From Eukaryota sp. GEM-RC1 (taxonomy: Eukaryota), in NCBI GenBank assembly GCA_040285855.1, contig JAUFOQ010000013.1:496001-560000 (forward strand): 64,000 bases of DNA, read 5' to 3'. The translations under genes and the position numbers were made by a program. How positions within the stretch are numbered: the first letter of the stretch is position 1; each line of letters opens with the position of its first letter. Of this stretch, positions 981-48,462 are shown in pieces. The notes under the pieces were generated by a model. It searched no databases and was not told the DNA's origin. It was given only the letters and a program-made list of their open reading frames with translations.

Positions 981-1011
981 GTAATTGCTTTTAACTAAAT
1001 TTCTTGGTCGT

Positions 1012-14872: not shown

Positions 14873-15675
14873 TCATAGAATCAATCGCTTTAAAGTCGCG
14901 ATCTCTCCTGAACTCTCTACCATTGATTTTAACGACTGTTGTGTTTGACTGTTGATTGAGTTGTAATCTAGATTGATCGTAGAAACTGAAGAATTCACCT
15001 TCAAAGCTTCAGCAATTGCAATAGCTCCTTCAGGACCAATTGAGTTGTTACCTAGATCGATCGTAGAAACTGAAGAATTCACCTTCAAAGCTTCAGCAAT
15101 TGCAATAGCTCCTTCATTACCAATTGAGTTGTTATATAGATGGATCGTAGAAACTGAAGAATTCACCTTCAAAGCTTCAGCAATTGCAATAGCTCCTTCA
15201 TTACCAATTGAGTTTTCAGCTAGATAAATCTCAGAAACTGAAGAATTCACCTTCAAAGCTTCAGCAATTGCAATAGCTCCTTCATTACCAATTGAGTTGT
15301 TCCATAGATAAATCTCAGAAACTGAAGAATTCACCTTCAAAGCTTCAGCAATTGCAATAGCTCCTTCATTACCAATTGAGTTGTTATCTAGATAAATCGC
15401 AGAAACTGAAGAATTCACCTTCAAAGCTTCAGCAATTGCAATAGCTCCTTCATTACCAATTGAGTTGCCACCTAGATAAATCTCAGAAACTGAACAATTC
15501 ACCTTCAAAGCTTCAGCAATTGCAATAGCTCCTTCACTACCAATTGAATTGTGCCTTAGATAAATCGTAGAAACTGCAGAATTCACCTTCAAAGCTTCAG
15601 CAATTGCAATAGCTCCTTCAGGACCAATTGAGTTGTAATCTAGATTGATCGTAGAAACCTCATATTTCTCACCAT
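14873..15675 (-). pseudogene. LRR cassette, terminal unit of array 1; no in-frame ATG; unique C-terminus
   Basis: The open LRR frame begins at EVSTINLDYN. The ATG homologue is out of frame because of a 2-bp insertion (aaat-at-gag). It ends SLKSMVESSGEIATLKRLIL. Confidence 0.85.
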
Positions 15676-16005
15676 TTCATCTCAACAATTTTAATAATGA
15701 AACTGTACATTGGGAATTCGATGGTAAATGTATAGTAGAAATTACCAATTCTTCAGATACTAATGAAGTTCTGTTGTTGTTGTGAACAATAACAAAAGTA
15801 CCAGTAAATAACGTGTGTTATTCATTAGGGCAGTATTTAAAATCTGTACTTGAACATTTGCTAAACTACTATGATATTTGACTCTGTCACGGAGTTTTGT
15901 TTGGAATAATTTTTGGTCTGAGGAAAATGATTTTTCAAGTGTGTATTATACTCAACGATTAATTATGGTACTTTTGATGAGAGATTAATTATGATTAATG
16001 ACAAA

Positions 16006-16589
16006 ACTATATGTTTAAGGCTAATGGTTTTCATGGAAAAATTGAACCTTTACTTGCTAATCTTTCTGATCAGCCAAAAGTTGATAGAAGTCGTGGTGAT
16101 TTGATTGGTCCTTGGTTATCTTGTTAGGATATTATCATGGATTTCACGACTGTTGATCCTTGTAATTCAAGATCAATTTCCAAAATTTTTGATGATGATT
16201 TTTCTGCTCTTGAAGTGGCTGAAAAAGGAAAAAATACAAAGTACTGTCACTTAATTAACCAATTGAATGTTGACAGGTACAATTCTTTTGTGTTTCAACC
16301 TTTTGCGATGTCGATATATGGTAATATTGGACCAGCTGCACAAGGTTTTTTAACCTCCTTTGGTAAATTGTGTTCTGAGTATGGTAAAGTTTTTAATGAA
16401 AATTTTTGGTTGAGTAGGTTAACGTTTGCGTTGTTTCGTTCAATGCACAGACATTTTAATTCAATTTTAGGTAAGTTGTTCGGTGATGGACAGAAGGATC
16501 ATAGTTTAGATACTTTAGTTAGTGTCTGTTAGTTATTAACTTCTGCAAATGCATTTATTTCACTGATTGATCATAAACCCCGTTTTTTT
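16006..16589 (+). mobile_element. 5'-truncated RLE-type non-LTR retrotransposon fragment in cassette spacer (copy 1)
   Basis: EP..RGDL..DFTTVDP..AEKGKNTKY..FQPFAMSIYGNIGPAAQGFL..FW..RL.FAL.R. Flanked by an atgacaaa duplication that is single-copy in empty spacers. In-frame TAG. Confidence 0.8.
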
Positions 16590-16626
16590 ATGACAAATGT
16601 GATTTTTATATACAATGAAAACTTGT

Positions 16627-17489
16627 TTAAAAAGATATTCTATTTTTGTGTAGTGATTTTAACGACTGTTGTGTTTGACTGTTGATTGAGTTGTTATGTA
16701 GATAAATCGTAGAAACTGAAGAATTCACCTTCAAAGCTTCAGCAATTGCAATAGCTCCTTCACTACCAATTGAGTTGTTACCTAGAGAAATCGTAGAAAC
16801 TGAAGAATTCACCTTCAAAGCTTCAGCAATTGCAATAGCTCCTTCACTACCAATTGAGTTGTTACCTAGAGAAATCGTAGAAACTGAAGAATTCACCTTC
16901 AACGCTTCAGCAATTGCAATAGCTCCTTCACTACCAATTGAGTTGTTACCTAGAGAAATCGTAGAAACTGAAGAATTCACCTTCAACGCTTCAACAATTG
17001 CAATAGCTCCTTCATTACCAATTGAGTTGTCACCTAAACCAATCGTAGAAACTGAAGAATTCACCTTCAAAGCTTCAGCAATTGCAATAGCTCCTTCATT
17101 ACCAATTGAGTTGTTCCATAGATAAATCTCAGAAACTGAAGAATTCACCTTCAAAGCTTCAGCAATTGCAATAGCTCCTTCATTACCAATTGAGTTGTTA
17201 TCTAGATAAATCGCAGAAACTGAAGAATTCACCTTCAAAGCTTCAGCAATTGCAATAGCTCCTTCATTACCAATTGAGTTGCCACCTAGATAAATCTCAG
17301 AAACTGAACAATTCACCTTCAAAGCTTCAGCAATTGCAATAGCTCCTTCACTACCAATTGAATTGTGCCTTAGATAAATCGTAGAAACTGCAGAATTCAC
17401 CTTCAAAGCTTCAGCAATTGCAATAGCTCCTTCAGGACCAATTGAGTTGTAATCTAGATTGATCGTAGAAACCTCATATTTCTCACCAT
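16627..17489 (-). pseudogene. LRR cassette, no in-frame ATG, KNRISF end
   Basis: Open LRR frame (ORF track 259 aa from TTG); same 2-bp insertion at the 5' junction. Confidence 0.85.
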
Positions 17490-17819
17490 TTCATCTCAAC
17501 AATTTTAATAATGAAACTGTACATTGGGAATTCGATGGTAAATGTATAGTAGAAATTAACAATTCTTCAGATACTAATGAAGTTCTGTTGTTGTTGTGAA
17601 CAATAACAAAAGTACCAGTAAATAACGTGTGTTATTCATTAGGGCAGTATTTAAAATCTGTACTTGAACATTTGCTAAACTACTATGATATTTGACTCTG
17701 TCACGGAGTTTTGTTTGGAATAATTTTTGGTCTGAGGAAAATGATTTTTCAAGTGTGTATTATACTCAACGATTAATTATGGTACTTTTGATGAGAGATT
17801 AATTATGATTAATGACAAA

Positions 17820-18401
17820 ACTATATGTTTAAGGCTAATGGTTTTCATGGAAAAATTGAACCTTTACTTGCTAATCTTTCTGATCAGCCAAAAGTTGATA
17901 GAAGTCGTGGTGATTTGATTGGTCCTTGGTTATCTTGTTAGGAAATTATCGTGGATTTCACGACTGTTGATCCTTGTAATTCAAGATCAATTTCCAAAAT
18001 TTTTGATGATGATTTTTCTGCTCTTGAAGTGGCTGAAAAGGAAAAAATACAAAGTACTGTCACTTAATTAACCAATTGAATGTTGACAGGTACAATTCTT
18101 TTGTGTTTCAACCTTTTGCGATGTCGATATATGGTAATATTGGACCAGCTGCACAAGGTTTTTTAACCTCCTTTGGTAAATTGTGTTCTGAGTATGGTAA
18201 AGTTTTTAATGAAAATTTTTGGTTGAGTAGGTTAACGTTTGCGTTGTTTCGTTCAATGCACAGACATTTTAATTCAATTTTAGGTAAGTTGTTCGGTGAT
18301 GGACAGAAGGATCATAGTTTAGATACTTTAGTTAGTGTCTGTTAGTTATTAACTTCTGCAAATGCATTTATTTCACTGATTGATCATAAACCCCGTTTTT
18401 T
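17820..18401 (+). mobile_element. RLE retrotransposon fragment (copy 2)
   Basis: Near-identical to 16006-16589 with the same flanks. Confidence 0.8.
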
Positions 18402-18438
18402 ATGACAAATGTGATTTTTATATACAATGAAAACTTGT

Positions 18439-19553
18439 TTAAAAAGATATTCTATTTTTGTGTAGTGATTTTAACGACTGTTGTGTTTGACTGTTGATTG
18501 AGTTGTTATGTAGATAAATCGTAGAAACTGAAGAATTCACCTTCAAAGCTTCAGCAATTGCAATAGCTCCTTCAGGACCAATTGAATTGTTATATAGATA
18601 AATCTGAGAAACTGAAGAATTCACCTTCAAAGCTTCAGCAATTGCAATAGCTCCTTCACTACCAATTGAGTTGTTACCTAGAGAAATCGTAGAAACTGAA
18701 GAATTCACCTTCAAAGCTTCAGCAATTGCAATAGCTCCTTCACTACCAATTGAGTTGTTACCTAGAGAAATCGTAGAAACTGAAGAATTCACCTTCAACG
18801 CTTCAGCAATTGCAATAGCTCCTTCACTACCAATTGAGTTGTTACCTAGAGAAATCGTAGAAACTGAAGAATTCACCTTCAACGCTTCAACAATTGCAAT
18901 AGCTCCTTCATTACCAATTGAGTTGTCACCTAAACCAATCGTAGAAACTGAAGAATTCACCTTCAAAGCTTCAGCAATTGCAATAGCTCCTTCATTACCA
19001 ATTGAGTTGTTATATAGATAAATCTGAGAAACTGAAGAATTCACCTTCAAAGCTTCAGCAATTGCAATAGCACCTTCATTACCAATTGAGTTATTACCTA
19101 GATCGATCGTAGAAACTGAAGAATTCACCTTCAAAGCTTCAGCAATTACAATAGCTCCTTCATTACCAATTGAGTTGTTCCATAGATAAATCTCAGAAAC
19201 TGAAGAATTCACCTTCAAAGCTTCAGCAATTGCAATAGCTCCTTCATTACCAATTGAGTTGTTATCTAGATAAATCGCAGAAACTGAAGAATTCACCTTC
19301 AAAGCTTCAGCAATTGCAATAGCTCCTTCATTACCAATTGAGTTGCCACCTAGATAAATCTCAGAAACTGAACAATTCACCTTCAAAGCTTCAGCAATTG
19401 CAATAGCTCCTTCACTACCAATTGAATTGTGCCTTAGATAAATCGTAGAAACTGCAGAATTCACCTTCAAAGCTTCAGCAATTGCAATAGCTCCTTCAGG
19501 ACCAATTGAGTTGTAATCTAGATTGATCGTAGAAACCTCATATTTCTCACCAT
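18439..19553 (-). pseudogene. LRR cassette, no in-frame ATG, KNRISF end
   Basis: Open LRR frame (343 aa from TTG). Confidence 0.85.
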
Positions 19554-19883
19554 TTCATCTCAACAATTTTAATAATGAAACTGTACATTGGGAATTCGAT
19601 GGTAAATGTATAGTAGAAATTAACAATTCTTCAGATACTAATGAAGTTCTGTTGTTGTTGTGAACAATAACAAAAGTACCAGTAAATAACGTGTGTTATT
19701 CATTAGGGCAGTATTTAAAATCTGTACTTGAACATTTGCTAAACTACTATGATATTTGACTCTGTCACGGAGTTTTGTTTGGAATAATTTTTGGTCTGAG
19801 GAAAATGATTTTTCAAGTGTGTATTATACTCAACGATTAATTATGGTACTTTTGATGAGAGATTAATTATGATTAATGACAAA

Positions 19884-20467
19884 ACTATATGTTTAAGGCT
19901 AATGGTTTTCATGGAAAAATTGAACCTTTACTTGCTAATCTTTCTGATCAGCCAAAAGTTGATAGAAGTCGTGGTGATTTGATTGGTCCTTGGTTATCTT
20001 GTTAGGAAATTATCATGGATTTCACGACTGTTGATCCTTGTAATTCAAGATCAATTTCCAAAATTTTTGATGATGATTTTTCTGCTCTTGAAGTGGCTGA
20101 AAAAGGAAAAAATACAAAGTACTGTCACTTAATTAACCAATTGAATGTTGACAGGTACAATTCTTTTGTGTTTCAACCTTTTGCGATGTCGATATATGGT
20201 AATATTGGACCAGCTGCACAAGGTTTTTTAACCTCCTTTGGTAAATTGTGTTCTGAGTATGGTAAAGTTTTTAATGAAAATTTTTGGTTGAGTAGGTTAA
20301 CGTTTGCGTTGTTTCGTTCAATGCACAGACATTTTAATTCAATTTTAGGTAAATTGTTCGGTGATGGACAGAAGGATCATAGTTTAGATACTTTAGTTAG
20401 TGTCTGTTAGTTATTAACTTCTGCAAATGCATTTATTTCACTGATTGATCATAAACCCCGTTTTTTT
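19884..20467 (+). mobile_element. RLE retrotransposon fragment (copy 3)
   Basis: Near-identical to 16006-16589 with the same flanks. Confidence 0.8.
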
Positions 20468-20504
20468 ATGACAAATGTGATTTTTATATACAATGAAAAC
20501 TTGT

Positions 20505-21451
20505 TTAAAAAGATATTCTATTTTTGTGTAGTGATTTTAACGACTGTTGTGTTTGACTGTTGATTGAGTTGTTATGTAGATAAATCGTAGAAACTGAAGA
20601 ATTCACCTTCAAAGCTTCAGCAATTGCAATAGCTCCTTCACTACCAATTGAGTTGTTACCTAGAGAAATCGTAGAAACTGAAGAATTCACCTTCAAAGCT
20701 TCAGCAATTGCAATAGCTCCTTCACTACCAATTGAGTTGTTACCTAGAGAAATCGTAGAAACTGAAGAATTCACCTTCAACGCTTCAGCAATTGCAATAG
20801 CTCCTTCACTACCAATTGAGTTGTTACCTAGAGAAATCGTAGAAACTGAAGAATTCACCTTCAACGCTTCAACAATTGCAATAGCTCCTTCATTACCAAT
20901 TGAGTTGTCACCTAAACCAATCGTAGAAACTGAAGAATTCACCTTCAAAGCTTCAGCAATTGCAATAGCTCCTTCATTACCAATTGAGTTGTCACCTAAA
21001 CCAATCGTAGAAACTGAAGAATTCACCTTCAAAGCTTCAGCAATTGCAATAGCTCCTTCATTACCAATTGAGTTTTCAGCTAGATAAATCTCAGAAACTG
21101 AAGAATTCACCTTCAAAGCTTCAGCAATTGCAATAGCTCCTTCATTACAAATTGAGTTGTTCCATAGATAAATCTCAGAAACTGAAGAATTCACCTTCAA
21201 AGCTTCAGCAATTGCAATAGCTCCTTCATTACCAATTGAGTTGTTATCTAGATAAATCGCAGAAACTGAACAATTCACCTTCAAAGCTTCAGCAATTGCA
21301 ATAGCTCCTTCACTACCAATTGAATTGTGCCTTAGATAAATCGTAGAAACTGCAGAATTCACCTTCAAAGCTTCAGCAATTGCAATAGCTCCTTCAGGAC
21401 CAATTGAGTTGTAATCTAGATTGATCGTAGAAACCTCATATTTCTCACCAT
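20505..21451 (-). pseudogene. LRR cassette, no in-frame ATG, KNRISF end
   Basis: Open LRR frame (287 aa from TTG). Confidence 0.85.
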
Positions 21452-21781
21452 TTCATCTCAACAATTTTAATAATGAAACTGTACATTGGGAATTCGATGG
21501 TAAATGTATAGTAGAAATTAACAATTCTTCAGATACTAATGAAGTTCTGTTGTTGTTGTGAACAATAACAAAAGTACCAGTAAATAACGTGTGTTATTCA
21601 TTAGGGCAGTATTTAAAATCTGTACTTGAACATTTGCTAAACTACTATGATATTTGACTCTGTCACGGAGTTTTGTTTGGAATAATTTTTGGTCTGAGGA
21701 AAATGATTTTTCAAGTGTGTATTATACTCAACGATTAATTATGGTACTTTTGATGAGAGATTAATTATGATTAATGACAAA

Positions 21782-22366
21782 ACTATATGTTTAAGGCTAA
21801 TGGTTTTCATGGAAAAATTGAACCTTTACTTGCTAATCTTTCTGATCAGCCAAAAGTTGATAGAAGTCGTGGTGATTTGATTGGTCCTTGGTTATCTTGT
21901 TAGGGAAATTATCGTGGATTTCACGACTGTTGATCCTTGTAATTCAAGATCAATTTCCAAAATTTTTGATGATGATTTTTCTGCTCTTGAAGTGGCTGAA
22001 AAAGGAAAAAATACAAAGTACTGTCACTTAATTAACCAATTGAATGTTGACAGGTACAATTCTTTTGTGTTTCAACCTTTTGCGATGTCGATATATGGTA
22101 ATATTGGACCAGCTGCACAAGGTTTTTTAACCTCCTTTGGTAAATTGTGTTCTGAGTATGGTAAAGTTTTTAATGAAAATTTTTGGTTGAGTAGGTTAAC
22201 GTTTGCGTTGTTTTGTTCAATGCACAGACATTTTAATTCAATTTTAGGTAAGTTGTTCGGTGATGGACAGAAGGATCATAGTTTAGATACTTTAGTTAGT
22301 GTCTGTTAGTTATTAACTTCTGCAAATGCATTTATTTCACTGATTGATCATAAACCCCGTTTTTTT
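21782..22366 (+). mobile_element. RLE retrotransposon fragment (copy 4)
   Basis: Near-identical to 16006-16589 with the same flanks. Confidence 0.8.
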
Positions 22367-22403
22367 ATGACAAATGTGATTTTTATATACAATGAAAACT
22401 TGT

Positions 22404-22825
22404 TTAAAAAGATATTCTATTTTTGTGTAGTGATTTTAACGACTGTTGTGTTTGACTGTTGATTGAGTTGTTATGTAGATAAATCGTAGAAACTGAAGAA
22501 TTCACCTTCAAAGCTTCAGCAATTGCAATAGCTCCTTCACTACCAATTGAGTTGTTACCTAGAGAAATCGTAGAAACTGAAGCAATTGCAATAGCTCCTT
22601 CATTACCAATTGAGTTTTCAGCTAGATAAATCTCAGAAACTGAAGAATTCACCTTCAAAGCTTCAGCAATTGCAATAGCTCCTTCATTACCAATTGAGGT
22701 GTTTTCTAGATAAATCTGAGAAACTGAAGAATTCACCTTCAAAGCTTCAGCGATTGCAATAGCTCCTTCATTACCAATTGAGTTGTAATCTAGATTGATC
22801 GTAGAAACCTCATATTTCTCACCAT
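22404..22825 (-). pseudogene. Short LRR cassette with an in-frame internal deletion
   Basis: ..EGAIAIA-SVSTISLGNN.. lacks EALKVNS; KNRISF end. Confidence 0.85.
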
Positions 22826-22993
22826 TTCATCTCAACAATTTTAATAATGAAACTGTACATTGGGAATTCGATGGTAAATGTATAGTAGAAATTAACAATT
22901 CTTCAGATACTAATAAAGTTCTGTTGTTGTTGTGAACAATAACAAAAGTACCAGTAAATAACGTGTGTTATTCATTAGGGCAGTATTTAAAAT

Positions 22994-23209
22994 TTGAGTT
23001 GTTATCTAGATGGATCGTAGAAACTGAAGAATTCACCTTCAAAGCTTCAGCAATTGCAATAGCTCCTTCATTACCAATTGAGTTGTTATATAGATAAATC
23101 TCAGAAACTGAAGAATTCACCTTCAAAGCTTCAGCAATTGCAATAGCTCCTTCATTACCAATTGAGTTGTAATCTAGATTGATCGTAGAAACCTCATATT
23201 TCTCACCAT
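22994..23209 (-). pseudogene. 3'-truncated LRR cassette immediately downstream of the TRIM-LRR gene
   Basis: Two and a half repeats are fused directly to mid-spacer sequence (cagtatttaaaat|ttgagttg); no C-cap. Confidence 0.85.
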
Positions 23210-23568
23210 TTCATCTCAACAATTTTAATAATGAAACTGTACATTGGGAATTCGATGGTAAATGTATAGTAGAAATTAACAATTCTTCAGATACTAATAA
23301 AGTTCTGTTGTTGTTGTGAACAATAACAAAAGTACCAGTAAATAACGTGTGTTATTCATTAGGGCAGTATTTAAAATCTGTACTTGAACATCTGCTAAAC
23401 TACTATGATATTTGACTCTGTCACGGAGTTTTGTTTGGGATAATGTTTGTTCTGAGCAAAATGATTTTTCAAGTGTGTATTATATTCACCGATTAATTAT
23501 GGGACTTTTGATGAGAAATTAATTATGATTAATGACAAATGTGATTTTTATATACAATGAAAACTTGT

Positions 23569-25356
23569 TTAAAAATCCATTCTATTTTTGTGTAGTGATT
23601 TTAACGACTGTTGTGTTTGACTGTTGATTGAGTTGTTATATAGATAAATCTGAGAAACTGAAGCATTCACCTTCAGAGCTTCAGCAATTGCAATAGCTCC
23701 TTCATTACCAATTGAGTTTGCAGCTAGATAAATCTCAGAAACTGAAGAATTCACCTTCAAAGCTTCAGCAATTGCAATAGCTCCTTCATTACCAATTGAG
23801 TTGTTTCCTAGATAAATCGTAGAAACTGAAGAATTCACCTTCAAAGCTTCAGCAATTGCAATAGCTCCTTCATTACCAATTGAGTTGTCCCATAGATAAA
23901 TCTCAGAAACTGAAGAATTCACCTTCAAAGATTCAGCAATTGCAATTGCTCCTTCAGGACCAATTGAGTTGTTATATAGATTGATCGTAGAAACTGAAGA
24001 ATTCACCTTCAAAGCTTCAGCAATTGCAATAGCTCCTTCAGGACCAATTGAGTTGTTTTGTAGATTGATCGTAGAAACTGAAGAATTCACCTTCAAAGCT
24101 TCAGCAATTGCAATAGCTCCTTCATTACCAATTGAGTTGTCCCATAGATAAATCTCAGAAACTGAAGAATTCACCTTCAAAGATTCAGCAATTGCAATTG
24201 CTCCTTCAGGACCAATTGAGTTGTTATATAGATTGATCGTAGAAACTGAAGAATTCACCTTCAAAGCTTCAGCAATTGCAATAGCTCCTTCATTACCAAT
24301 TGAGTTGTTATCTAGATAAATCGTAGAAACCTCATTTCTCACCATTTCATCATAACAATTCTTCAACTTCGAACTAAGCTCGTTCCAATCAATAACAAGC
24401 TCCTTCTCTTCAACTTGTTGTACAGGACAAACACTTGTAATAGACTTGATTGGTGAAGGAGTGTCATCTAGAAGCCTAGCAGAAGCAACATTGGACTCCG
24501 AAACAACGGAAAGAGAGGCCAAACGACGAGAAGCTTCGGAGTGGATAGAGCAAAGTTCTTCATTTAAAGAGGAAATGATAGCAGATTGGTTGTTAAGTAG
24601 GGTGGAAGTTGTGGTAATGAAGTTTTCGCCGATCTTTGGTTTAAAGATAACAGGCTTACCTGATTTTAAGTCATTCATGATGGTAACAGAGTCTAACATA
24701 GTTTCTTGCAGCATATCAGTTAGAGTTTCTTTCATTTGAGCAAATCCAGATGCCGCTTGTTGGAGAGCATTTTCTGTACACTTTCCGACGGTTTCTACAG
24801 CAACGGCTAGTTCTTGATTGATGGCATTAATGCCATGTTCTACAGCAGATCTTCCTTCGTCAAACGGAAGCAAATTCTTCTTGTGCTGGTCGTGGTCCCC
24901 AAGGATAGCACAAATTGAGCAAAGCGCAACAGAACAAGAAGTACAGAAGAGGTCAAAGGATTTGGACGGATGGATCGGACATTTAGGCACAATGGAGGCG
25001 TGTTTCTTTTGCAGCGGAATTGCAACGTGGGTACGTAAGAGTTTCGGCCGATGAATGTCCTTAAAACATTGGTCGCATAAATCAGCGTCACATTCTGCGC
25101 AATAACAAGTGGCAACAGCTTCATCACACTCAATACAAATAGACTCACCCTGACCAGCAACGAAGGCTTCAACAGCTTCTTTCAACTTGTAGTTAGGACA
25201 CAGCCTTGACTTGTCCACTTCAGCTCTACAAATTGGACATCCGTCATGAGAAACAAGCCACTCCTGTAAATCCGACATACAAAAGGTGTGGCCACACCAA
25301 GTAGTTACCGGATTCTTGAGAATTTCATGACATATATCACATAGATAGTGAGACAT
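23569..25356 (-). CDS. TRIM-like E3 ubiquitin ligase: RING, B-box, B-box, coiled coil, then 8 RI/NLRC3-like 28-aa LRRs plus cap (595 aa)
   Basis: RING CDIC..CGHTFCMSD..CPIC; B-box CIEC..CYCAEC..LCDQC..H..H; B-box CPIH..LFCTSC..LCSIC..H..H; helical linker; repeats of LKVNSSVSxIxLxxNSIGxEGAIAIAEA. Uninterrupted ORF with ATG. Confidence 0.92.
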   Translation of the reverse strand: MSHYLCDICHEILKNPVTTWCGHTFCMSDLQEWLVSHDGCPICRAEVDKSRLCPNYKLKEAVEAFVAGQGESICIECDEAVATCYCAECDADLCDQCFKDIHRPKLLRTHVAIPLQKKHASIVPKCPIHPSKSFDLFCTSCSVALCSICAILGDHDQHKKNLLPFDEGRSAVEHGINAINQELAVAVETVGKCTENALQQAASGFAQMKETLTDMLQETMLDSVTIMNDLKSGKPVIFKPKIGENFITTTSTLLNNQSAIISSLNEELCSIHSEASRRLASLSVVSESNVASARLLDDTPSPIKSITSVCPVQQVEEKELVIDWNELSSKLKNCYDEMVRNEVSTIYLDNNSIGNEGAIAIAEALKVNSSVSTINLYNNSIGPEGAIAIAESLKVNSSVSEIYLWDNSIGNEGAIAIAEALKVNSSVSTINLQNNSIGPEGAIAIAEALKVNSSVSTINLYNNSIGPEGAIAIAESLKVNSSVSEIYLWDNSIGNEGAIAIAEALKVNSSVSTIYLGNNSIGNEGAIAIAEALKVNSSVSEIYLAANSIGNEGAIAIAEALKVNASVSQIYLYNNSINSQTQQSLKSLHKNRMDF

Positions 25357-35036: not shown

Positions 35037-35805
35037 TACAGTGTACATACATCTAATAATCAATATCCTCAAATCCCAGATTACCTATCTGGAAGTTCTG
35101 GTCTACTTTGGAAAACCCAAATCGTAATTAACATGTCTATAAACTCTCTCTTCAGAAATTAATTGTGTATTTCCTAAAACAATTCTGAACATTAGATTTA
35201 AAAAGGCACAATCGTAATTTCAATCACATATACTTGGCTATGTAGAAACCGCAAAAACTAATTTAGCACCACTAGGTCTTCGTAAATTTAACATCGTCAT
35301 ATGTGTTTCTTCTATTGACTGCAATATTCAATTCAACAATTTTGGTAACTCTTTGTGTATCACTATCAGTTTTACTGACTGAATGCAAAAGCACGTTTAT
35401 GAAACATCACTGAGAATAAGTAAAGCATCATATTTTGCATATGATAGACAATGCAGTCGTGATAATAATGAAATTGTACATTGGTAATTCGATGGTAAAT
35501 GTATAGTAGAAATTAACAATACTTCGAATACTAATAAATTTCTGTTGTTGTTGTGAACAATAGCAAAAGTACCAGTAAATAACGTGTGTTATTCACCAGG
35601 GTAGTATTTAAAATGTGTACTTGAACATCTGCTAAACTACTATGATATTTTACTCTGTCACGGAGTTTTGTTTGGGATAATGATTGTTCTGAGCTAAAGG
35701 ATTTTTCGAGTGTGTATTATATTCACCGATTAATTATGGTACTTTTGATGAGAAATTAATTATGATTAATGACAAATGTGATTTTTATATACAATGAAAA
35801 CTTGT

Positions 35806-35907
35806 TTAAAAATACATTCTATTTTTGTGTAGTGATTTTAACGACTGTTGTGTTTGACTGTTGATTGAGTTGTTATCTAGATAAATCGTAGAAACCTCAT
35901 TTCTCAC
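35806..35907 (-). pseudogene. Empty cassette: N-cap joined directly to C-cap
   Basis: VRNEVSTIYLDNNSINSQTQQSLKSLHKNRMYF* with no full repeat and no ATG. Confidence 0.85.
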
Positions 35908-36268
35908 CCTTTCATCTCAACAATTTTAATAATGAAACTGTACATTGGTAATTCGATGGTAAATGTATAGTAGAAATTAACAATACTTCAGATACTAATA
36001 AATTTCTGTTGTTGTTGTGAACAATAGCAAAGTACCAGTAAATAACGTGTGTTATTCACCAGGGTAGTATTTAAAATGTGTACTTGAACATCTGCTAAAC
36101 TACTATGATATTTCACTCTGTCACGGAGTTTTGTTTGGGATAATGATTGTTCTGAGCTAAAGGATTTTTCAAGTGTGTATTATATTCACCGATTAATTAT
36201 GGTACTTTTGATGAGAAATTAATTATGATTAATGACAAATGTGATTTTTATATACAATGAAAACTTGT

Positions 36269-36700
36269 TTAAAAATACATTCTATTTTTGTGTAGTGATC
36301 TTAACGACTGTTGTGTTTGACTGTTGATTGAGTTGTTATCTAGATAAATCGTAGAAACTGAAGAATTCACCTTCAAAGCTTCAGCAATTGCAATAGCTCC
36401 TTCATTACCAATTGAGTTGTCACCTAGATAAATCGTAGAAACTGAAGAATTCACCTTCAAAGCTTCACGGAGTTTTGTTTGGGATAATGATTGTTCTGAG
36501 CTAAATGATTTTTCAAGTGTGCATTACATTCATCGTTTAATTATGGTGCTTTTGATGAGAAATTAATTATGATTAATGACAAATGTGATTTAAATCGTAG
36601 AAACTGAAGAATTCACCTTCAAAGCTTCAGCAATTGCAATAGCTCCTTCATTACCAATTGAGTTGTAATCTAGATAAATCGTAGAGACCTCATTTCTCAC
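36269..36700 (-). pseudogene. Rearranged LRR cassette interrupted by spacer sequence
   Basis: LRR 36269-36467, spacer fragment 36465-36590, LRR 36591-36700. Confidence 0.85.
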
Positions 36701-37062
36701 CCTTTCATCTCAACAATTTTAATAATGAAATTGTACATTGGTAATTCGATGGTAAATGTATAGTAGAAATTAACAATACTTCGAATACTAATAAATTTCT
36801 GTTGTTGTTGTGAACAATAGCAAAAGTACCAGTAAATAACGTGTGTTATTCACCAGGGTAGTATTTAAAATGTGTACTTGAACATCTGCTAAACTACTAT
36901 GATATTTTACTCTGTCACGGAGTTTTGTTTGGGATAATGATTGTTCTGAGCTGAAGGATTTTTCAAGTGTGTATTATATTCACCGATTAATTATGGTACT
37001 TTTGATGAGAAATTAATTATGATTAATGACAAATGTTATTTTTATATACAATGAAAACTTGT

Positions 37063-37587
37063 TTAAAAATACATTCTATTTTTGTGTAGTGATTTTAACG
37101 ACTGTTGTGTTTGACTGTTGATTGAGTTGTTATCTAGATAAATCGTAGAAACTGAAGAATTGACCTTCAAAGCTTCAGCAATTGCAATAGCTCCTTCACT
37201 ACCAATTGAGTTGTCACCTAGATAAATCGTAGAAACTGAAGAATTCACCTTCAAAGCTTCAGCAATTGCAATAGCGCCTTCAGTACCAATTGAGTTGTTA
37301 TATAGATAAATCGTAGAAACTGAAGAATTCACCTTCAACGCTTCAGCAATTGCAATAGCTTCTTCAACACCAATTGAGTTGAAACCTAGATGAATCGTAG
37401 AAACTGAAGAATTCACCTTCAACGCTTCAGCAATTGCAATAGCTTCTTCAACACCAATTGAGTTGAAACCTAGATGAATCGTAGAAACTGAAGAATTCAC
37501 CTTCAACGCTTCAGCAATTGCAATAGCGCCTTCAGTACCAATTGAGTTGTTATATAGATTGATCGTAGAACTGTCATTTCTCAACAT
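37063..37587 (-). CDS. LRR-only cassette ORF, 174 aa
   Basis: ATG TTG AGA AAT GAC start, homologous to the internal MVRNE of the TRIM gene; intact. Confidence 0.7.
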   Translation of the reverse strand: MLRNDSSTINLYNNSIGTEGAIAIAEALKVNSSVSTIHLGFNSIGVEEAIAIAEALKVNSSVSTIHLGFNSIGVEEAIAIAEALKVNSSVSTIYLYNNSIGTEGAIAIAEALKVNSSVSTIYLGDNSIGSEGAIAIAEALKVNSSVSTIYLDNNSINSQTQQSLKSLHKNRMYF

Positions 37588-37946
37588 TTCGTCTCAACAA
37601 TTTTAGTAATGAAACTGTACATTGGTAATTCGATGGCAAATGTACAGTAATAATTAACAATACTTCAGATACTAATAAATTTCTGTTGTTGTTGTGAACA
37701 ATAGCAAAAGTACCAGTAAATAACGTGTGTTATTCACCAGGGTAGTATTTAAAATGTGTACTTGAACATCTGCTAAACTACTATGATATTTCACTCTGTC
37801 ACGGAGTTTTGTTTGGGATAATGATTGTTCTGAGCTAAAGGATTTTTCAAGTGTGTATTATATTCACCGATTAATTATGGTACTTTTGATGAGAAATTAA
37901 TTATGATTAATGACAAATGTGATTTTTATATACAATGAAAACTTGT

Positions 37947-38378
37947 TTAAAAATACATTCTATTTTTGTGTAGTGATCTTAACGACTGTTGTGTTTGACT
38001 GTTGATTGAGTTGTTATCTAGATAAATCGTAGAAACTGAAGAATTCACCTTCAAAGCTTCAGCAATTGCAATAGCTCCTTCATTACCAATTGAGTTGTCA
38101 CCTAGATAAATCGTAGAAACTGAAGAATTCACCTTCAAAGCTTCACGGAGTTTTGTTTGGGATAATGATTGTTCTGAGCTAAATGATTTTTCAAGTGTGC
38201 ATTACATTCATCGTTTAATTATGGTGCTTTTGATGAGAAATTAATTATGATTAATGACAAATGTGATTTAAATCGTAGAAACTGAAGAATTCACCTTCAA
38301 AGCTTCAGCAATTGCAATAGCTCCTTCATTACCAATTGAGTTGTAATCTAGATAAATCGTAGAGACCTCATTTCTCAC
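37947..38378 (-). pseudogene. Rearranged LRR cassette, duplicate of 36269-36700
   Basis: Same two junctions. Confidence 0.85.
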
Positions 38379-38739
38379 CCTTTCATCTCAACAATTTTAA
38401 TAATGAAACTGTACATTGGTAATTCGATGGTAAATGTATAGTAGAAGTTAACAATACTTCAGATACTAATAAATTTCTGTTGTTGTTGTGAACAATAGCA
38501 AAGTACCAGTAAATAACGTGTGTTATTCACCAGGGTAGTATTTAAAATGTGTACTTGAACATCTGCTAAACTACTATGATATTTCACTCTGTCACGGAGT
38601 TTTGTTTGGGATAATGATTGTTCTGAGCTGAAGGATTTTTCAAGTGTGTATTATATTCACCGATTAATTATGGTACTTTTGATGATAAATTAATTATGAT
38701 TAATGGAAAATGTGATTTTTATATGTAATGAAAACTTGT

Positions 38740-39348
38740 TTAAAAATACATTCTATTATAGTGTAGTGATTTTAACGACTGTTTTGTTTGACTATTGATT
38801 GAGTTGTTATTTAGATAAATCGTAGAAACTGAAGAATTGACCTTCAAAGCTTCAGCAATTGCAATAGCTCCTTCACTACCAATTGAGTTGTCACCTTGAT
38901 AAATCGTAGAAACTGAAGAATTCACCTTCAAAGCTTCAGCAATTGCAATAGCGCCTTCAGTACCAATTGAGTTGTTATATAGATAAATCGTAGAAACTGA
39001 AGAATTCACCTTCAAAGCTTCAGCAATTGCAATAGCTTCTTCAACACCAATTGAGTTGAAACCTAGATGAATCGTAGAAACTGAAGAATTCACCTTCAAA
39101 GCTTCAGCAATTGCAATAGCTTCTTCAACACCAATTGAGTTGAAACCTAGATGAATCGTAGAAACTGAAGAATTCACCTTCAACGCTTCAGCAATTGCAA
39201 TAGCTTCTTCAACACCAATTGAGTTGAAACCTAGATGAATCGTAGAAACTGAAGAATTCACCTTCAACGCTTCAGCAATTGCAATAGCGCCTTCAGTACC
39301 AATTGAGTTGTTATATAGATTGATCGTAGAACTGTCATTTCTCAACAT
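38740..39348 (-). CDS. LRR-only cassette ORF, 202 aa
   Basis: Intact MLRNDSS..HYNRMYF. Confidence 0.7.
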   Translation of the reverse strand: MLRNDSSTINLYNNSIGTEGAIAIAEALKVNSSVSTIHLGFNSIGVEEAIAIAEALKVNSSVSTIHLGFNSIGVEEAIAIAEALKVNSSVSTIHLGFNSIGVEEAIAIAEALKVNSSVSTIYLYNNSIGTEGAIAIAEALKVNSSVSTIYQGDNSIGSEGAIAIAEALKVNSSVSTIYLNNNSINSQTKQSLKSLHYNRMYF

Positions 39349-39707
39349 TTCGTCTCAACAATTTTAGTAATGAAACTGTACATTGGTAATTCGATGGCAA
39401 ATGTACAGTAATAATTAACAATAATTCAGATACTAATAAATTTCTGTTGTTGTTGAGAATAATAGGAAAAGTACCAGTAAATAACGTGTGTTATTCACCA
39501 GGGTAGTATTTAAAATCTGCACTTGAACATCTGCTAAACTACAATGATATTTGACTCTGTCACGCAGTTTTGTTTGGGATAATTTTTGTTCTGAGCAAAA
39601 CGATTTTTCAAGTGTGCATTACATTCACAGTTTAATTATGGTGCTTTTGATGATAAATTAATTATGATTAATGGAAAATGTGATTTTTATATGTAATGAA
39701 AACTTGT

Positions 39708-40316
39708 TTAAAAATACATTCTATTATAGTGTAGTGATTTTAACGACTGTTTTGTTTGACTATTGATTGAGTTGTTATTTAGATAAATCGTAGAAACTGA
39801 AGAATTGACCTTCAAAGCTTCAGCAATTGCAATAGCTCCTTCACTACCAATTGAGTTGTCACCTAGATAAATCGTAGAAACTGAAGAATTCACCTTCAAA
39901 GCTTCAGCAATTGCAATAGCGCCTTCAGTACCAATTGAGTTGTTATATAGATAAATCGTAGAAACTGAAGAATTCACCTTCAAAGCTTCAGCAATTGCAA
40001 TAGCTTCTTCAACACCAATTGAGTTGAAACCTAGATGAATCGTAGAAACTGAAGAATTCACCTTCAACGCTTCAGCAATTGCAATAGCTTCTTCAACACC
40101 AATTGAGTCGAAACCTAGATGAATCGTAGAAACTGAAGAATTCACCTTCAACGCTTCAGCAATTGCAATAGCTTCTTCAACACCAATTGAGTTGAAACCT
40201 AGATGAATCGTAGAAACTGAAGAATTCACCTTCAAAGCTTCAGCAATTGCAATAGCACCTTCAGGACCAATTGAGTTGTTATATAGATTGATCGTAGAAC
40301 TGTCATTTCTCAACAT
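39708..40316 (-). CDS. LRR-only cassette ORF, 202 aa
   Basis: Intact MLRNDSS..HYNRMYF. Confidence 0.7.
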   Translation of the reverse strand: MLRNDSSTINLYNNSIGPEGAIAIAEALKVNSSVSTIHLGFNSIGVEEAIAIAEALKVNSSVSTIHLGFDSIGVEEAIAIAEALKVNSSVSTIHLGFNSIGVEEAIAIAEALKVNSSVSTIYLYNNSIGTEGAIAIAEALKVNSSVSTIYLGDNSIGSEGAIAIAEALKVNSSVSTIYLNNNSINSQTKQSLKSLHYNRMYF

Positions 40317-40675
40317 TTCGTCTCAACAATTTTAGTAATGAAACTGTACATTGGTAATTCGATGGCAAATGTACAGTAATAATTAACAATAATTCAGATA
40401 CTAATAAATTTCTGTTGTTGTTGAGAATAATAGGAAAAGTACCAGTAAATAACGTGTGTTATTCACCAGGGTAGTATTTAAAATCTGCACTTGAACATCT
40501 GCTAAACTACAATGATATTTGACTCTGTCACGCAGTTTTGTTTGGGATAATTTTTGTTCTGAGCAAAACGATTTTTCAAGTGTGCATTACATTCACAGTT
40601 TAATTATGGTGCCCTTGATGATAAATTAATTATGATTAATGGAAAATGTGATTTTTATATGTAATGAAAACTTGT

Positions 40676-41181
40676 TTAAAAATACATTCTATTATAGTGT
40701 AGTGATTTTAACGACTGTTTTGTTTGACTGTTGATTGAGTTGTTACTGAAGAATTCACCTTCAAAGCTTCAGCAATTGCAATAGCGCCTTCAGTACCAAT
40801 TGAGTTGTTATATAGATAAATCGTAGAAACTGAAGAATTCACCTTCAAAGCTTCAGCAATTGCAATAGCTTCTTCAACACCAATTGAGTTGAAACCTAGA
40901 TGAATCGTAGAAACTGAAGAATTCACCTTCAACGCTTCAGCAATTGCAATAGCTTCTTCAACACCAATTGAGTTGAAACCTAGATGAATCGTAGAAACTG
41001 AAGAATTCACCTTCAACGCTTCAGCAATTGCAATAGCTTCTTCAACACCAATTGAGTTGAAACCTAGATGAATCGTAGAAACTGAAGAATTCACCTTCAA
41101 AGCTTCAGCAATTGCAATAGCACCTTCAGGACCAATTGAGTTGTTATATAGATTGATCGTAGAACTGTCATTTCTCAACAT
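40676..41181 (-). pseudogene. LRR cassette with frameshifted C-cap
   Basis: A deletion in the last beta-strand gives VTTQSTVKQNSR*. Confidence 0.75.
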
Positions 41182-41540
41182 TTCGTCTCAACAATTTTAG
41201 TAATGAAACTGTACATTGGTAATTCGATGGTAAATGTACAGTAATAATTAACAATAATTCAGATACTAATAAATTTCTGTTGTTGTTGAGAACAATAGGA
41301 AAAGTACCAGTAAATAACGTGTGTTATTCACCAGGGTAGTATTTAAAATCTGCACTTGAACATCTGCTAAACTACTATGATATTTGACTCTGTCACGCAG
41401 TTTTGTTTGGGATAATTTTTGTTCTGAGCAAAACGATTTTTCAAGTGTGCATTACATTCACAGTTTAATTATGGTGCTTTTGATGATAAATTAATTATGA
41501 TTAATGGAAAATGTGATTTTTATATGTAATGAAAACTTGT

Positions 41541-41878
41541 TTAAAAATACATTCTATTATAGTGTAGTGATTTTAACGACTGTTTTGTTTGACTGTTGAT
41601 TGAGCTGTTACTGAAGAATTCACCTTCAAAGCTTCAGCAATTGCAATAGCGCCTTCAGTACCAATTGAGTTGTTATATAGATAAATCGTAGAAACTGAAG
41701 AATTCACCTTCAACGCTTCAGCAATTGCAATAGCTTCTTCAACACCAATTGAGTTGAAACCTAGATGAATCGTAGAAACTGAAGAATTCACCTTCAAAGC
41801 TTCAGCAATTGCAATAGCACCTTCAGGACCAATTGAGTTGTTATATAGATTGATCGTAGAACTGTCATTTCTCAACAT
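41541..41878 (-). pseudogene. LRR cassette with frameshifted C-cap
   Basis: Same deletion; VTAQSTVKQNSR*. Confidence 0.75.
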
Positions 41879-42237
41879 TTCGTCTCAACAATTTTAGTAA
41901 TGAAACTGTACATTGGTAATTCGATGGTAAATGTACAGTAATAATTAACAATAATTCAGATACTAATAAATTTCTGTTGTTGTTGAGAATAATAGGAAAA
42001 GTACCAGTAAATAACGTGTGTTATTCACCAGGGTAGTATTTAAAATCTGCACTTGAACATCTGCTAAACTACTATGATATTTGACTCTGTCACGCAGTTT
42101 TGTTTGGGATAATTTTTGTTCTGAGCAAAACGATTTTTCAAGTGTGCATTACATTCACAGTTTAATTATGGTGCTTTTGATGATAAATTAATTATGATTA
42201 ATGGAAAATGTGATTTTTATATGTAATGAAAACTTGT

Positions 42238-43022
42238 TTAAAAATACATTCTATTATAGTGTAGTGATTTTAACGACTGTTTTGTTTGACTATTGATTGA
42301 GTTCTTACTGAAGAATTCACCTTCAAAGCTTCAATTGCAATAGCTCCTTCAGGACCAATTGAGTTGTTATATAGATAAATCGTAGAAACTGAAGAATTCA
42401 CCTTCAAAGCTTCAGCAATTGCAATAGCTCCTTCAGTACCAATTGAGTTCGCAATAGCTCCTTCAGGACCAATTGAGTTGTTATCTAGAAAAATCGTAGA
42501 AACTGAAGAATTCACCTTCAAAGCTTCAGCAATCGCAATAGCTCCTTCAGGACCAATTGAGTTGTTATCTAGAAAAATCGTAGAAACTGAAGAATTGACC
42601 TTCAAAGCTTCAGCAATCGCAATAGCTTCTTCAACACCAATTGAGTTGAAACCTAGATAAATCTCAGAAACTGAAGAATTCACCTTCAAAGCTTCAGCAA
42701 TTGCAATAGCTCCTTCAACACCAATTGAGTTGAAACCTAGATTGATCTTAGAAACTGAAGAATTTACCTTCAAAGCTTCAGCAATTGCAATAGCTCCTTC
42801 AGTACCAAGTGAGTTGTTAAATAGATAAATCTTAGAAACTGAAGAATTCACCTTCAAAGCTTCAGCAATTGCAATAGCTCCTTCATTACCAATTGAGTTG
42901 TTATATAGATAAATCGTAGAAACCGAAGAATTCACCTTCAAAGCTTCAGCCATTGCAATAGCTCCTTCAGTACCAATTGAGTTGTTATATAGATTGATCG
43001 TAGAACTCTCATTTCTCAACAT
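42238..43022 (-). pseudogene. Chimeric LRR cassette with frameshifted C-cap
   Basis: MLRNESS-type 5' part joined to the deleted cap of the MLRNDSS group. Confidence 0.75.
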
Positions 43023-43380
43023 TTCGTCTCAACAATTTTAATAATGAAAATGTACATTGGTAATTCGATGGTAAATGTACGGTATCATTTAACAATATTT
43101 CAGATACTAATAAATTTCTGTTGCTGTTGAGAACAATAGCAAAGTACCAGTAAATAACGTGTGTTATTCACCAGGGTAGTATTTAAAATCTGTACTTGAA
43201 CATCTGCTAAACTACTATGATATTTCACTCTGTCACGGAGTTTTGTTTGGGATAATGATTGTTCTGAGCTAAAGGATTTTTCAAGTGTGTATTATATTCA
43301 CCGATTAATTATGGTACTTTTGATGAGAAATTAATTATGATTAATGACAAATGTGATTTTTATATACAATGAAAACTTGT

Positions 43381-44271
43381 TTAAAAATACATTCTATTTT
43401 TGTGTAGTGATTTTAACGACTGTTGTGTTTGACTGTTGATTGAGTTGTTACCTAGATCGATCGCAGAAACTGAAGAATTCACCTTCAAAGCTTCAGCAAT
43501 TGCAATAGCTCCTTCAACACCAATTGAGTTGTAATCTAGATTGATCTTAGAAACTGAAGAATTCACCTTCAACGCTTCAGCAATTGCAATAGCTCCTTCA
43601 ACACCAATTGAGTTGAAACCTAGATTGATCTTAGAAACTGAAGAATTTACCTTCAAAGCTTCAGCAATTGCAATAGCTCCTTCAGTACCAATTGAGTTGT
43701 TAAATTGATAAATCGTAGAAACTGAAGAATTCACCTTCAAAGCTTCAGCAATTGCAATAGCTCCTTCAGTACCAATTGAGTTCGCAATAGCTCCTTCAGG
43801 ACCAATTGAGTTGTTATCTAGAAAAATCGTAGAAACTGAAGAATTCACCTTCAAAGCTTCAGCAATCGCAATAGCTTCTTCAACACCAATTGAGTTGAAA
43901 CCTAGATAAATCTCAGAAACTGAAGAATTCACCTTCAAAGCTTCAGCAATTGCAATAGCTCCTTCAACACCAATTGAGTTGAAACCTAGATTGATCTTAG
44001 AAACTGAAGAATTTACCTTCAAAGCTTCAGCAATTGCAATAGCTCCTTCAGTACCAAGTGAGTTGTTAAATAGATAAATCTTAGAAACTGAAGAATTCAC
44101 CTTCAAAGCTTCAGCAATTGCAATAGCTCCTTCATTACCAATTGAGTTGTTATATAGATAAATCGTAGAAACCGAAGAATTCACCTTCAAAGCTTCAGCC
44201 ATTGCAATAGCTCCTTCAGTACCAATTGAGTTGTTATATAGATTGATCGTAGAACTCTCATTTCTCAACAT
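43381..44271 (-). CDS. LRR-only cassette ORF, 296 aa
   Basis: Intact MLRNESS..KNRMYF. Confidence 0.7.
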   Translation of the reverse strand: MLRNESSTINLYNNSIGTEGAIAMAEALKVNSSVSTIYLYNNSIGNEGAIAIAEALKVNSSVSKIYLFNNSLGTEGAIAIAEALKVNSSVSKINLGFNSIGVEGAIAIAEALKVNSSVSEIYLGFNSIGVEEAIAIAEALKVNSSVSTIFLDNNSIGPEGAIANSIGTEGAIAIAEALKVNSSVSTIYQFNNSIGTEGAIAIAEALKVNSSVSKINLGFNSIGVEGAIAIAEALKVNSSVSKINLDYNSIGVEGAIAIAEALKVNSSVSAIDLGNNSINSQTQQSLKSLHKNRMYF

Positions 44272-44629
44272 TTCGTCTCAACAATTTTAATAATGAAAAT
44301 GTACATTGGTAATTCGATGGTAAATGTACGGTATCATTTAACAATATTTCAGATACTAATAAATTTCTGTTGCTGTTGAGAACAATAGCAAAGTACCAGT
44401 AAATAACGTGTGTTATTCACCAGGGTAGTATTTAAAATCTGTACTTGAACATCTGCTAAACTACTATGATATTTCACTCTGTCACGGAGTTTTGTTTGGG
44501 ATAATGATTGTTCTGAGCTAAAGGATTTTTCAAGTGTGTATTATATTCACCGATTAATTATGGTACTTTTGATGAGAAATTAATTATGATTAATGACAAA
44601 TGTGATTTTTATATACAATGAAAACTTGT

Positions 44630-45520: not shown

Positions 45521-45878
45521 TTCGTCTCAACAATTTTAATAATGAAAATGTACATTGGTAATTCGATGGTAAATGTACGGTATCATTTAACAATATTTCA
45601 GATACTAATAAATTTCTGTTGCTGTTGAGAACAATAGCAAAGTACCAGTAAATAACGTGTGTTATTCACCAGGGTAGTATTTAAAATCTGTACTTGAACA
45701 TCTGCTAAACTACTATGATATTTCACTCTGTCACGGAGTTTTGTTTGGGATAATGATTGTTCTGAGCTAAAGGATTTTTCAAGTGTGTATTATATTCACC
45801 GATTAATTATGGTACTTTTGATGAGAAATTAATTATGATTAATGACAAATGTGATTTTTATATACAATGAAAACTTGT

Positions 45879-46769: not shown

Positions 46770-47128
46770 TTCGTCTCAACAATTTTAATAATGAAAATGT
46801 ACATTGGTAATTCGATGGTAAATGTACGGTATCATTTAACAATATTTCAGATACTAATAAATTTCTGTTGCTGTTGAGAACAATAGCAAAAGTACCAGTA
46901 AATAACGTGTGTTATTCACCAGGGTAGTATTTAAAATCTGTACTTGAACATCTGCTAAACTACTATGATATTTCACTCTGTCACGGAGTTTTGTTTGGGA
47001 TAATGATTGTTCTGAGCTAAAGGATTTTTCAAGTGTGTATTATATTCACCGATTAATTATGGTACTTTTGATGAGAAATTAATTATGATTAATGACAAAT
47101 GTGATTTTTATATACAATGAAAACTTGT

Positions 47129-48103: not shown

Positions 48104-48462
48104 TTCGTCTCAACAATTTTAATAATGAAAATGTACATTGGTAATTCGATGGTAAATGTACGGTATCATTTAACAATATTTCAGATACTAATAAATTTCT
48201 GTTGCTGTTGAGAACAATAGCAAAAGTACCAGTAAATAACGTGTGTTATTCACCAGGGTAGTATTTAAAATCTGTACTTGAACATCTGCTAAACTACTAT
48301 GATATTTCACTCTGTCACGGAGTTTTGTTTGGGATAATGATTGTTCTGAGCTAAAGGATTTTTCAAGTGTGTATTATATTCACCGATTAATTATGGTACT
48401 TTTGATGAGAAATTAATTATGATTAATGACAAATGTGATTTTTATATACAATGAAAACTTGT

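Follow-up and report, generated by a model that had tools for sequence, protein, structure and literature searches.

A TRIM-type RING/B-box protein with a ribonuclease inhibitor-like leucine-rich repeat domain, and the arrays of headless repeat cassettes around its gene, in Eukaryota sp. GEM-RC1

In a 64,000-nucleotide stretch of genomic DNA from Eukaryota sp. GEM-RC1, referred to here as the window, an intact gene encodes a 595-residue protein (P0001) that joins the RING/B-box/coiled-coil (RBCC) head of the TRIM proteins to a C-terminal leucine-rich repeat (LRR) domain of the ribonuclease inhibitor (RI)-like class. Most of the window is occupied by 31 headless LRR cassettes (6 + 25) on the same strand as this gene. 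We consider it reasonably probable that P0001 is a TRIM-type, likely ubiquitin ligase whose LRR face has been diversified by selection and by recombination with the cassettes, the arrays being a by-product that probably also serves as a reservoir. A preliminary description of the locus had the architecture of the gene right and missed the 31 surrounding cassettes with their hypervariable face. The source organism likely corresponds, by name, to the skoliomonad GEM-RC; skoliomonads are bacterivorous anaerobic metamonads whose genomes are 28-55% repetitive (PMC11316075, Table 1).

The RBCC head and the LRR domain of P0001

The gene and its parts are as follows.

23569..25356, minus strand: intact gene in a single uninterrupted frame, encoding RING, B-box 1, B-box 2, coiled coil, linker and LRR domain (P0001, 595 aa; Pfam, AlphaFold)
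25228..25341, minus strand: RING finger, residues 6-43 (Pfam, alignment, model superposition)
25270..25272, minus strand: Asp29 (codon GAT), the sixth zinc-ligand position (sequence, alignment)
25027..25137, minus strand: B-box type 1, residues 74-110, C-x2-C-x8-C-x2-C-x4-C-x2-C-x4-H-x7-H (alignment; Pfam below cut-off when taken alone)
24883..24981, minus strand: B-box type 2, residues 126-158, C-x2-H-x8-C-x2-C-x4-C-x2-C-x5-H-x2-H (Pfam, alignment)
24511..24864, minus strand: predicted coiled-coil region, helices 165-231 (hendecad periodicity) and 244-282 (AlphaFold, periodicity test)
24337..24387, minus strand: predicted helix 324-340 ahead of the first LRR, likely an N-cap (AlphaFold)
23569..24330, minus strand: RI-like LRR domain of nine strands with a 28-aa/84-nt period, and C-cap (repeats, AlphaFold, fold matches)

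By its structure P0001 is a TRIM protein. An N-terminal RING finger with Asp as its sixth ligand is followed directly by a type 1 and then a type 2 B-box, and behind these a coiled coil with a hendecad pattern is predicted. The RING (residues 6-43; ligands C6, C9, C21, H23, C26, D29, C40 and C43) matches zf-C3HC4_2 in Pfam above the cut-off (E 1.6e-8), and its model superposes on the TRIM25 RING with Z 11.7 and an rmsd of 1.6 over 70 residues, a fit tied by U-box structures; the RINGs of TRIM21 and TRIM69 are overlaid as well. The zf-B_box family is matched in two stretches at E 3e-12, best at 124-159. Profile support falls short for B-box 1 taken alone, which reaches 24.5 bits against a 27-bit cut-off (ANCHR-like_BBOX, residues 74-111, E 2.9e-5) with a complete ligand pattern. 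In an alignment of 41 sequences, 22 of the 24 zinc ligands are at least 90% conserved (seven of eight in the RING, seven of eight in B-box 1 and all eight in B-box 2), the exceptions being Asp29 and His102.

A single-sequence AlphaFold model gave pLDDT below 50 for residues 1-341, and residues 1-290 were therefore modelled with the 41-sequence alignment. This model (mean pLDDT 88) contains the RING, both B-boxes and helices 165-231 and 244-282. No Pfam coiled-coil family matched P0001. The hydrophobic periodicity of helix 165-231 at 3.67 was reached by none of 5000 shuffles, compared with p 0.78 at 3.5. At 67 residues this helix is shorter than the main helix of animal TRIMs, which is roughly 110 residues long. 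Hendecad periodicity is reported for TRIM coiled coils in the excerpted text of PMC4239116. Pfam, the ligand alignment, AlphaFold and the periodicity test together bear out the RING, two B-boxes and coiled coil of the preliminary description.

That description had also pointed to an Asp at a RING ligand position, in the motif CGHTFCMSD. The motif is present in P0001 and places Asp29 at ligand 6. The substitution is real and less odd than was implied: among 150 RBCC-like matches, 88 proteins fit the RING pattern, and their sixth ligand is Cys in 79, His in 5 and Asp in 4. In the relatives P0003 and P0004 it is His, a single base change away from Asp29. The RING also has Ile8, Trp33, Pro41 and Arg44, at positions through which canonical RINGs bind and prime E2~ubiquitin. 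Because His or Asp stands at ligand 6 in 9 of the 88 pattern-fitting matches and the residues of the E2 face are kept, we do not favor a dead RING; Asp29 likely still binds zinc. As judged from sequence, the likelier reading is that P0001 is an active RING ubiquitin ligase.

The C-terminus is LRR all along. Pfam LRR_6 matches at E 1.4e-26, the repeats keep a 28-residue period, and the RI-like solenoid proposed earlier is upheld by both and by fold matches of about equal quality to NOD2, NLRP3, ribonuclease inhibitor and axonemal LRR proteins, with RanGAP also among them. Single-sequence AlphaFold gave block pLDDT values of about 67-94 across residues 341-580. The seven full internal units of P0001 (196 aa) share a mean identity of 85.5%. 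The domain was thought to lie outside the usual C-terminal classes of TRIM proteins, and an RBCC + LRR description was indeed not found in a literature search by title and abstract opening, in which subscription journals were thinly covered. A MATH domain was not matched at E values up to 1.

The locus had further been read as an NLR-like sensor joined to a TRIM-like effector. The repeat class and the RBCC head agree with this wording and the nucleotide-binding domain is missing: of the features that define NLR (STAND) proteins, P0001 has the C-terminal repeat sensor and lacks the NACHT/NB-ARC domain, for which there was no Pfam match, residues 1-340 being taken up by the RBCC head and linker. 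Since it has no NACHT, P0001 is not an NLR, and "NLR-like" fits its repeat class alone.

The headless cassettes and the DNA around them

All 279 repeat motifs of the 64-kb window lie on the minus strand. The arrays comprise the following features.

14873..23215, minus strand: lower array, which follows the gene immediately and has 6 headless LRR cassettes (repeat/frame mapping)
35463..62860, minus strand: upper array, 25 headless LRR cassettes with spacers of ~349 nt (repeat/frame mapping)
63183..63819, minus strand: 5'-truncated gene copy, from residue 245 on, heading the upper array (96% nt identity, 295 nt)

A typical cassette consists of the start of the LRR domain, repeats, C-cap and stop, followed by a spacer of ~349 nt that is the gene's own 3' flank; we infer that tandem duplication of the gene's 3' third gave rise to the cassettes. 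Of the predicted helix 324-340, cassettes carry only the last few residues. Lower cassettes start at 23215, 22831, 21457, 19559, 17495 and 15681. Reading frames are open from the repeat anchor to an intact cap at 34 of 44 anchors in the lower array and 164 of 182 in the upper array, and all eight anchors of the gene are in frame. The arrays are unlikely to be an assembly artefact, because 78 of 183 units are distinct and their higher-order blocks are ordered; single frameshifts may be errors.

Many upper cassettes could be expressed as LRR-only proteins, such as decoys, adaptors or free binders, under selection of their own and not as donors. We regard this as very doubtful. Fifteen of the 25 upper cassettes have a front ATG in frame to an intact cap, and the array has private face changes of several bases, as this reading would predict. 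However, 13 of these 15 ATGs are the inherited internal Met338 of the gene, so that the predicted N-cap helix is missing, and adjoining copies have no ATG or no cap: one upper cassette has an internal ATG only, three have a frameshifted cap and six have no usable ATG. In all six lower cassettes a 2-nt insertion puts the inherited ATG out of frame, and none has another in frame.

Each cassette ends in its own stop and 3' flank downstream of a head, an arrangement that would also suit alternative last exons spliced to the RBCC head. Against this, the gene has no intron at the LRR start. In three spacers a single YAG lies less than 60 nt from the first repeat, and the path from it into the repeats is free of stops in 2 of 31 cassettes. 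Alternative last exons with canonical acceptors are largely refuted by the sequence, and we hold such splicing to be extremely improbable.

Several other features of the window were recorded. The upper cassettes at 51772 and 50719 acquired an in-frame ATG from the spacer, and in many upper cassettes 30 nt of a repeat are duplicated without loss of frame (42270-62829, minus strand). Four lower-array spacers hold an insertion of ~590 nt with an 8-nt target duplication (16040-16590, 17854-18401, 19918-20468 and 21816-22367), of which there is an 86% copy at 7738-8165 and a similar frame at 34260-34646. Its 131-aa frame had no Pfam match and fell into unnamed Atlas clusters at 0.95; by eye it resembles the C-terminal, endonuclease part of non-LTR retroelements. 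Two copies of another element, 165 nt long and 91% identical, lie where the gene copy is truncated (63820-64000) and just past the far end of the array (34868-35032), and the upper array is therefore flanked by direct repeats. Between the arrays, a long gene, in which Kelch-like stretches and others rich in cysteine can be made out by eye, is broken into six frame-shifted pieces (30439-33739, minus strand); it may be a pseudogene, have tiny introns or reflect assembly indels, one break falling at a T-run, and it calls for caution in counting cassette frameshifts. At 985-2435 (plus strand) a Sina-like RING (E 6.9e-6) is followed by a frame change and a frame of 390 aa that has no Pfam match and, by eye, a motif like that of nucleotidyltransferases, and at 417-737 (minus strand) Pfam finds a C-terminal dimerisation fragment of a hAT transposase (E 3.3e-13).

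Variation of the LRR face and exchange between gene and arrays

We compared 183 full 84-nt units, 78 of them distinct. Variation peaks at positions 2, 4, 6 and 7 of the LxxLxLxxN strand motif and at position 12, and it is again these five that are most variable among 36 units of six gene-encoded proteins. For the counts below the face comprises every x of the strand motif, five in all, and the classes were defined after the variation pattern had been seen. Among the 78 distinct units pN was 0.349 and pS 0.056 at the face, compared with 0.016 and 0.086 in the framework without position 12. Minimal changes were 29 nonsynonymous to 2 synonymous at the face and 19 to 15 in the framework (Fisher p 6e-4). 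Common framework variants (5:9, p 0.003) are short of amino-acid changes, and rare ones (14:6, p 0.43) look neutral. These selection tests are counting methods applied to non-independent, recombining copies. None of the 183 units contains a stop, which is weak evidence since only 11 of 252 point changes yield one.

P0001 and P0008 differ at 5 of their first 343 residues, none before 307, and among their LRR cores (9 and 11, respectively) one is common to both. The face residues F7, V12, T12 and F6 are frequent in the upper array and occur in none of 47 gene-encoded cores, which fits either standalone expression or an unsampled donor gene. Invariant third positions of variable codons had suggested DGR-like adenine mutagenesis. 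This was rejected because the synonymous third-position A of four codons (TCA9, GAA13, GAA20 and TCA27) is constant across all 183 units.

Sequence has moved between the gene and the arrays, as the following pair of tracts indicates.

22993..23644, minus strand: gene C-cap, stop, spacer and start of the first cassette, common with 54525-55177 (2 mismatches and 1 indel)
54525..55177, minus strand: copy of the gene 3' end and first-cassette start inside the upper array (tract comparison)

The tract of ~651 nt is thus found at the 3' end of the gene and in a cassette 31 kb away, with a spacer distance of 0.003, as against 0.037-0.097 between the gene's spacer and the other 25 short spacers. The cassettes are mosaics of common blocks, and the four-gamete test fails for 81 of the 136 informative pairs of sites, although such failures may also stem from recurrent mutation, and recombination may inflate pN/pS. 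The tract carries the 2-nt insertion, which all 6 lower cassettes have and 1 of the 25 upper cassettes; movement out of the gene locus into the array is therefore the simpler account, and we consider this direction more likely on the sequence evidence. Transfer from cassette to gene was not seen in the gene's seven full units, none of which matches a cassette unit exactly (the nearest differ by 1-3 nt), and just one of its nine cores equals a cassette core.

These data bear on a reading in which the ligase is real and fast-evolving and the arrays are dead by-products, a coding minisatellite of old variants amplified by unequal crossover with no feedback to the gene. No cassette has a head, and an ATG frame to an intact cap exists in none of the 6 lower cassettes and in 16 of the 25 upper ones. 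The neutral look of rare framework variants and the likely gene-to-array direction of the visible exchange agree with this, and array amplification needs no function, given that skoliomonad genomes are 28-55% repetitive (PMC11316075, as excerpted). Furthermore, no cassette product of at least 90% identity appeared among 7,988 scored candidates, the best reaching 75-78%; repeat masking could, however, account for the missing products (PMC11316075, as excerpted). Set against dead arrays are the shortage of amino-acid changes among common framework variants, the open frames that lead to a cap in most cassettes and the abundance of array-private face variants, and same-register homology makes back-transfer mechanically hard to escape. 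We judge this explanation somewhat unlikely.

At the other extreme, cassette repeats might be copied into the expressed RBCC-LRR gene by a programmed switch, in the manner of lamprey VLRs or antigenic variation. Twice in the window a single complete head stands before many donor-shaped cassettes, and the face is hypervariable. Yet the genome carries this gene in complete form, in contrast to the germline genes of VLRs in the excerpted sources, its repeats are not copies of present cassettes, neither a recombinase nor a signal sequence was seen, and adenine-directed, DGR-like mutagenesis is unsupported. A programmed switch is highly improbable. A related reading, in which maintained donor arrays would be swapped onto the TRIM head so that clones differ in the targets they tag, would make P0001 a cassette-fed cytosolic variable receptor; this we consider quite unlikely. 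If true, it would amount to an antibody-plus-TRIM21-like defence within one gene.

Relatives, known systems and a proposed role

The nearest named relatives of P0001 are proteins labelled Eukaryota sp. GEM-RC1. Residues 1-290 gave 4,792 matches among 1.84 billion representatives, and four of the best 150 bear LRRs (P0004, P0013, P0024 and P0028), all named GEM-RC1. Conversely, among the best 120 of 844 LRR matches P0001 is the only one with a B-box, none of the other 119 having one, and 12 of these others are GEM-RC1 proteins with different heads. In a head tree of 39 rows the five LRR-bearing rows fall inside one eight-row, GEM-RC1-named clade (100/99) that also contains P0003, P0007 and P0009, non-LRR or truncated; P0001 groups with skoliomonad RBCCs (96/93) in this tree, which includes two animal rows and is midpoint-rooted with long branches. 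The heads of P0003 and P0013 are identical at 159 of 190 residues and carry different terminal domains. Because of the single GEM-RC1 clade and these near-same heads with unlike tails, the RBCC-LRR fusion looks young and lineage-restricted, in a genome that appears to swap heads and tails.

As to whether such an architecture is already common, RBCC-LRR was found only in this one GEM-RC1 clade, whereas clusters combining a B-box with LRRs of another class exist. In the Atlas, B-box + LRR_4/LRR_8 clusters comprise 108 members (98%, 91%) and 91 members (48%, 99%), with scores of 0.86; they count against uniqueness as leads only. A pattern scan of metagenomes returned 75 matches, none of them a relative of P0001. 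In the excerpted text of Marin 2012 (PMC3503706), non-animal TRIMs all fall in the MATH-bearing subfamily A, and leucine-rich repeats are not mentioned.

In GEM-RC1-named proteins the RI-like LRR module is also found on other heads, among them kinase, reticulon-like and unnamed ones (P0190, P0197, P0199, P0201, P0203, P0206, P0210, P0223, P0230, P0246, P0249 and P0259). An expanded skoliomonad RING-Bbox-Bbox-helical family has varied tails (P0012, P0014, P0016, P0017, P0019, P0022, P0026, P0027 and P0038); its members are named GEM-RC1 or TZLM1-RC, and in many of them ligands 5 and 6 of the RING are separated by three residues. SPRY-like tails (P0016, P0017, P0019 and P0026) and an RRM-like tail (P0003) were suspected by eye and unconfirmed by Pfam or by the best 60 PDB sequence matches. 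If true, the SPRY-like tails would parallel animal TRIM-SPRY proteins.

P0001 shares with TRIM/RBCC proteins the order of RING, B-box 1, B-box 2 and coiled coil and differs in its RI-like LRR C-terminus and in Asp for Cys at ligand 6; TRIM37-like subfamily A proteins end in MATH, of which P0001 has none. With NLRC3/NOD2-type NLRs it shares the 28-residue RI-like LRR class, NOD2 being among the top fold matches and many of the best 120 of 844 LRR matches carrying NACHT, whereas P0001 has neither NACHT nor NB-ARC. The closest functional analogue in logic, going by the excerpts of PMC8567218, is LRSAM1, which unites LRR recognition, coiled coils and a RING ligase in one chain and coats cytosolic bacteria with ubiquitin. 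In LRSAM1, however, the LRR comes first and the RING last, there is a SAM domain and there are no B-boxes, and those excerpts mention no hypervariable arrays.

In its mode of variation the locus resembles fungal HNWD/het-e genes of Podospora, which as excerpted have near-identical repeats, few positively selected face positions and inter-locus exchange (PMC4986451, PMC13449251). P0001 likewise has near-identical repeats, its 85.5% amino-acid identity over 7 units (196 aa) lying just above the threshold for high internal conservation (over 85% across at least 100 aa), and, by counting methods, diversifying selection at few binding-face positions per repeat, with repeat exchange within and between loci. 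Fungal NLRs of this kind, as far as these sources describe them, have a NOD and a death effector, whereas P0001 has LRRs, no NOD, a RING head and tandem headless cassettes; the fungal repeats are WD, ANK or TPR, no LRR being found in the excerpted survey (PMC4986451). Fungal high-internal-conservation NLR pseudogenes are described there as keeping near-intact repeats (PMC4986451, PMC13449251).

Among protists, Tetrahymena LRR genes with 90-bp exons show ectopic recombination and non-LTR elements beside LRR units (excerpts of PMC6564038), and a brown-algal LRR receptor family with one repeat per exon diversified by ectopic recombination (summary in PMC13449251). The present locus is a further case of protist LRR diversification, with a probable retroelement fragment in four spacers; compared with those accounts it differs in that its 84-nt repeats are intronless and lie in whole-domain cassettes, each closed by a stop and 3' flank of its own. 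Lamprey VLRs, in the sources as excerpted, also have LRR cassettes flanking a gene with a variable concave face, but they are assembled somatically by a program into surface or secreted receptors, whereas P0001 has a complete germline ORF with its cap and is predicted to be cytosolic. What sets the locus apart is its RBCC head, along with its headless, whole-domain cassettes.

We propose that the coiled coil would dimerise P0001 and that binding of a repetitive target by the LRRs would cluster the RINGs and so activate E2~ubiquitin, both by analogy with TRIM biology, with Asp29 likely keeping zinc binding. Amino-acid changes at positions 2, 4, 6, 7 and 12 would retune the predicted target face on a constrained framework, under selection resembling an arms race. 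Cassettes would have originated from tandem duplication of the 3' third of the gene and then have become an unprogrammed reservoir. There has been recent movement of sequence between the 3' end of the gene and an array 31 kb off, and the repeats are mosaic. Since strand and register are common to all repeats, a new in-frame LRR would result if a repeat of the gene underwent crossover or conversion with one from a cassette. The target may be foreign or selfish, such as prey bacteria escaping the food vacuole, viruses or mobile-element proteins, which is the weakest step of the proposal. By analogy the role of P0001 is probably defence, although RI-like LRRs serve non-immune roles too, which speaks against an immune-only reading.

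An 84-nt scaffold that stays fixed except at five variable codons, joined to a ligase, offers a natural template for designed degraders. That a metamonad has a complete RBCC family with two B-boxes and exchangeable tails, one branch of it with a hypervariable LRR, suggests that in single-celled eukaryotes TRIM-type ligases with variable targets either arose again or arose much earlier. If the arrays feed the gene, the locus would allow receptor diversification to be studied on a compact scale in a phagotroph that can be cultured, and would directly test ubiquitin-based pattern recognition in protists.
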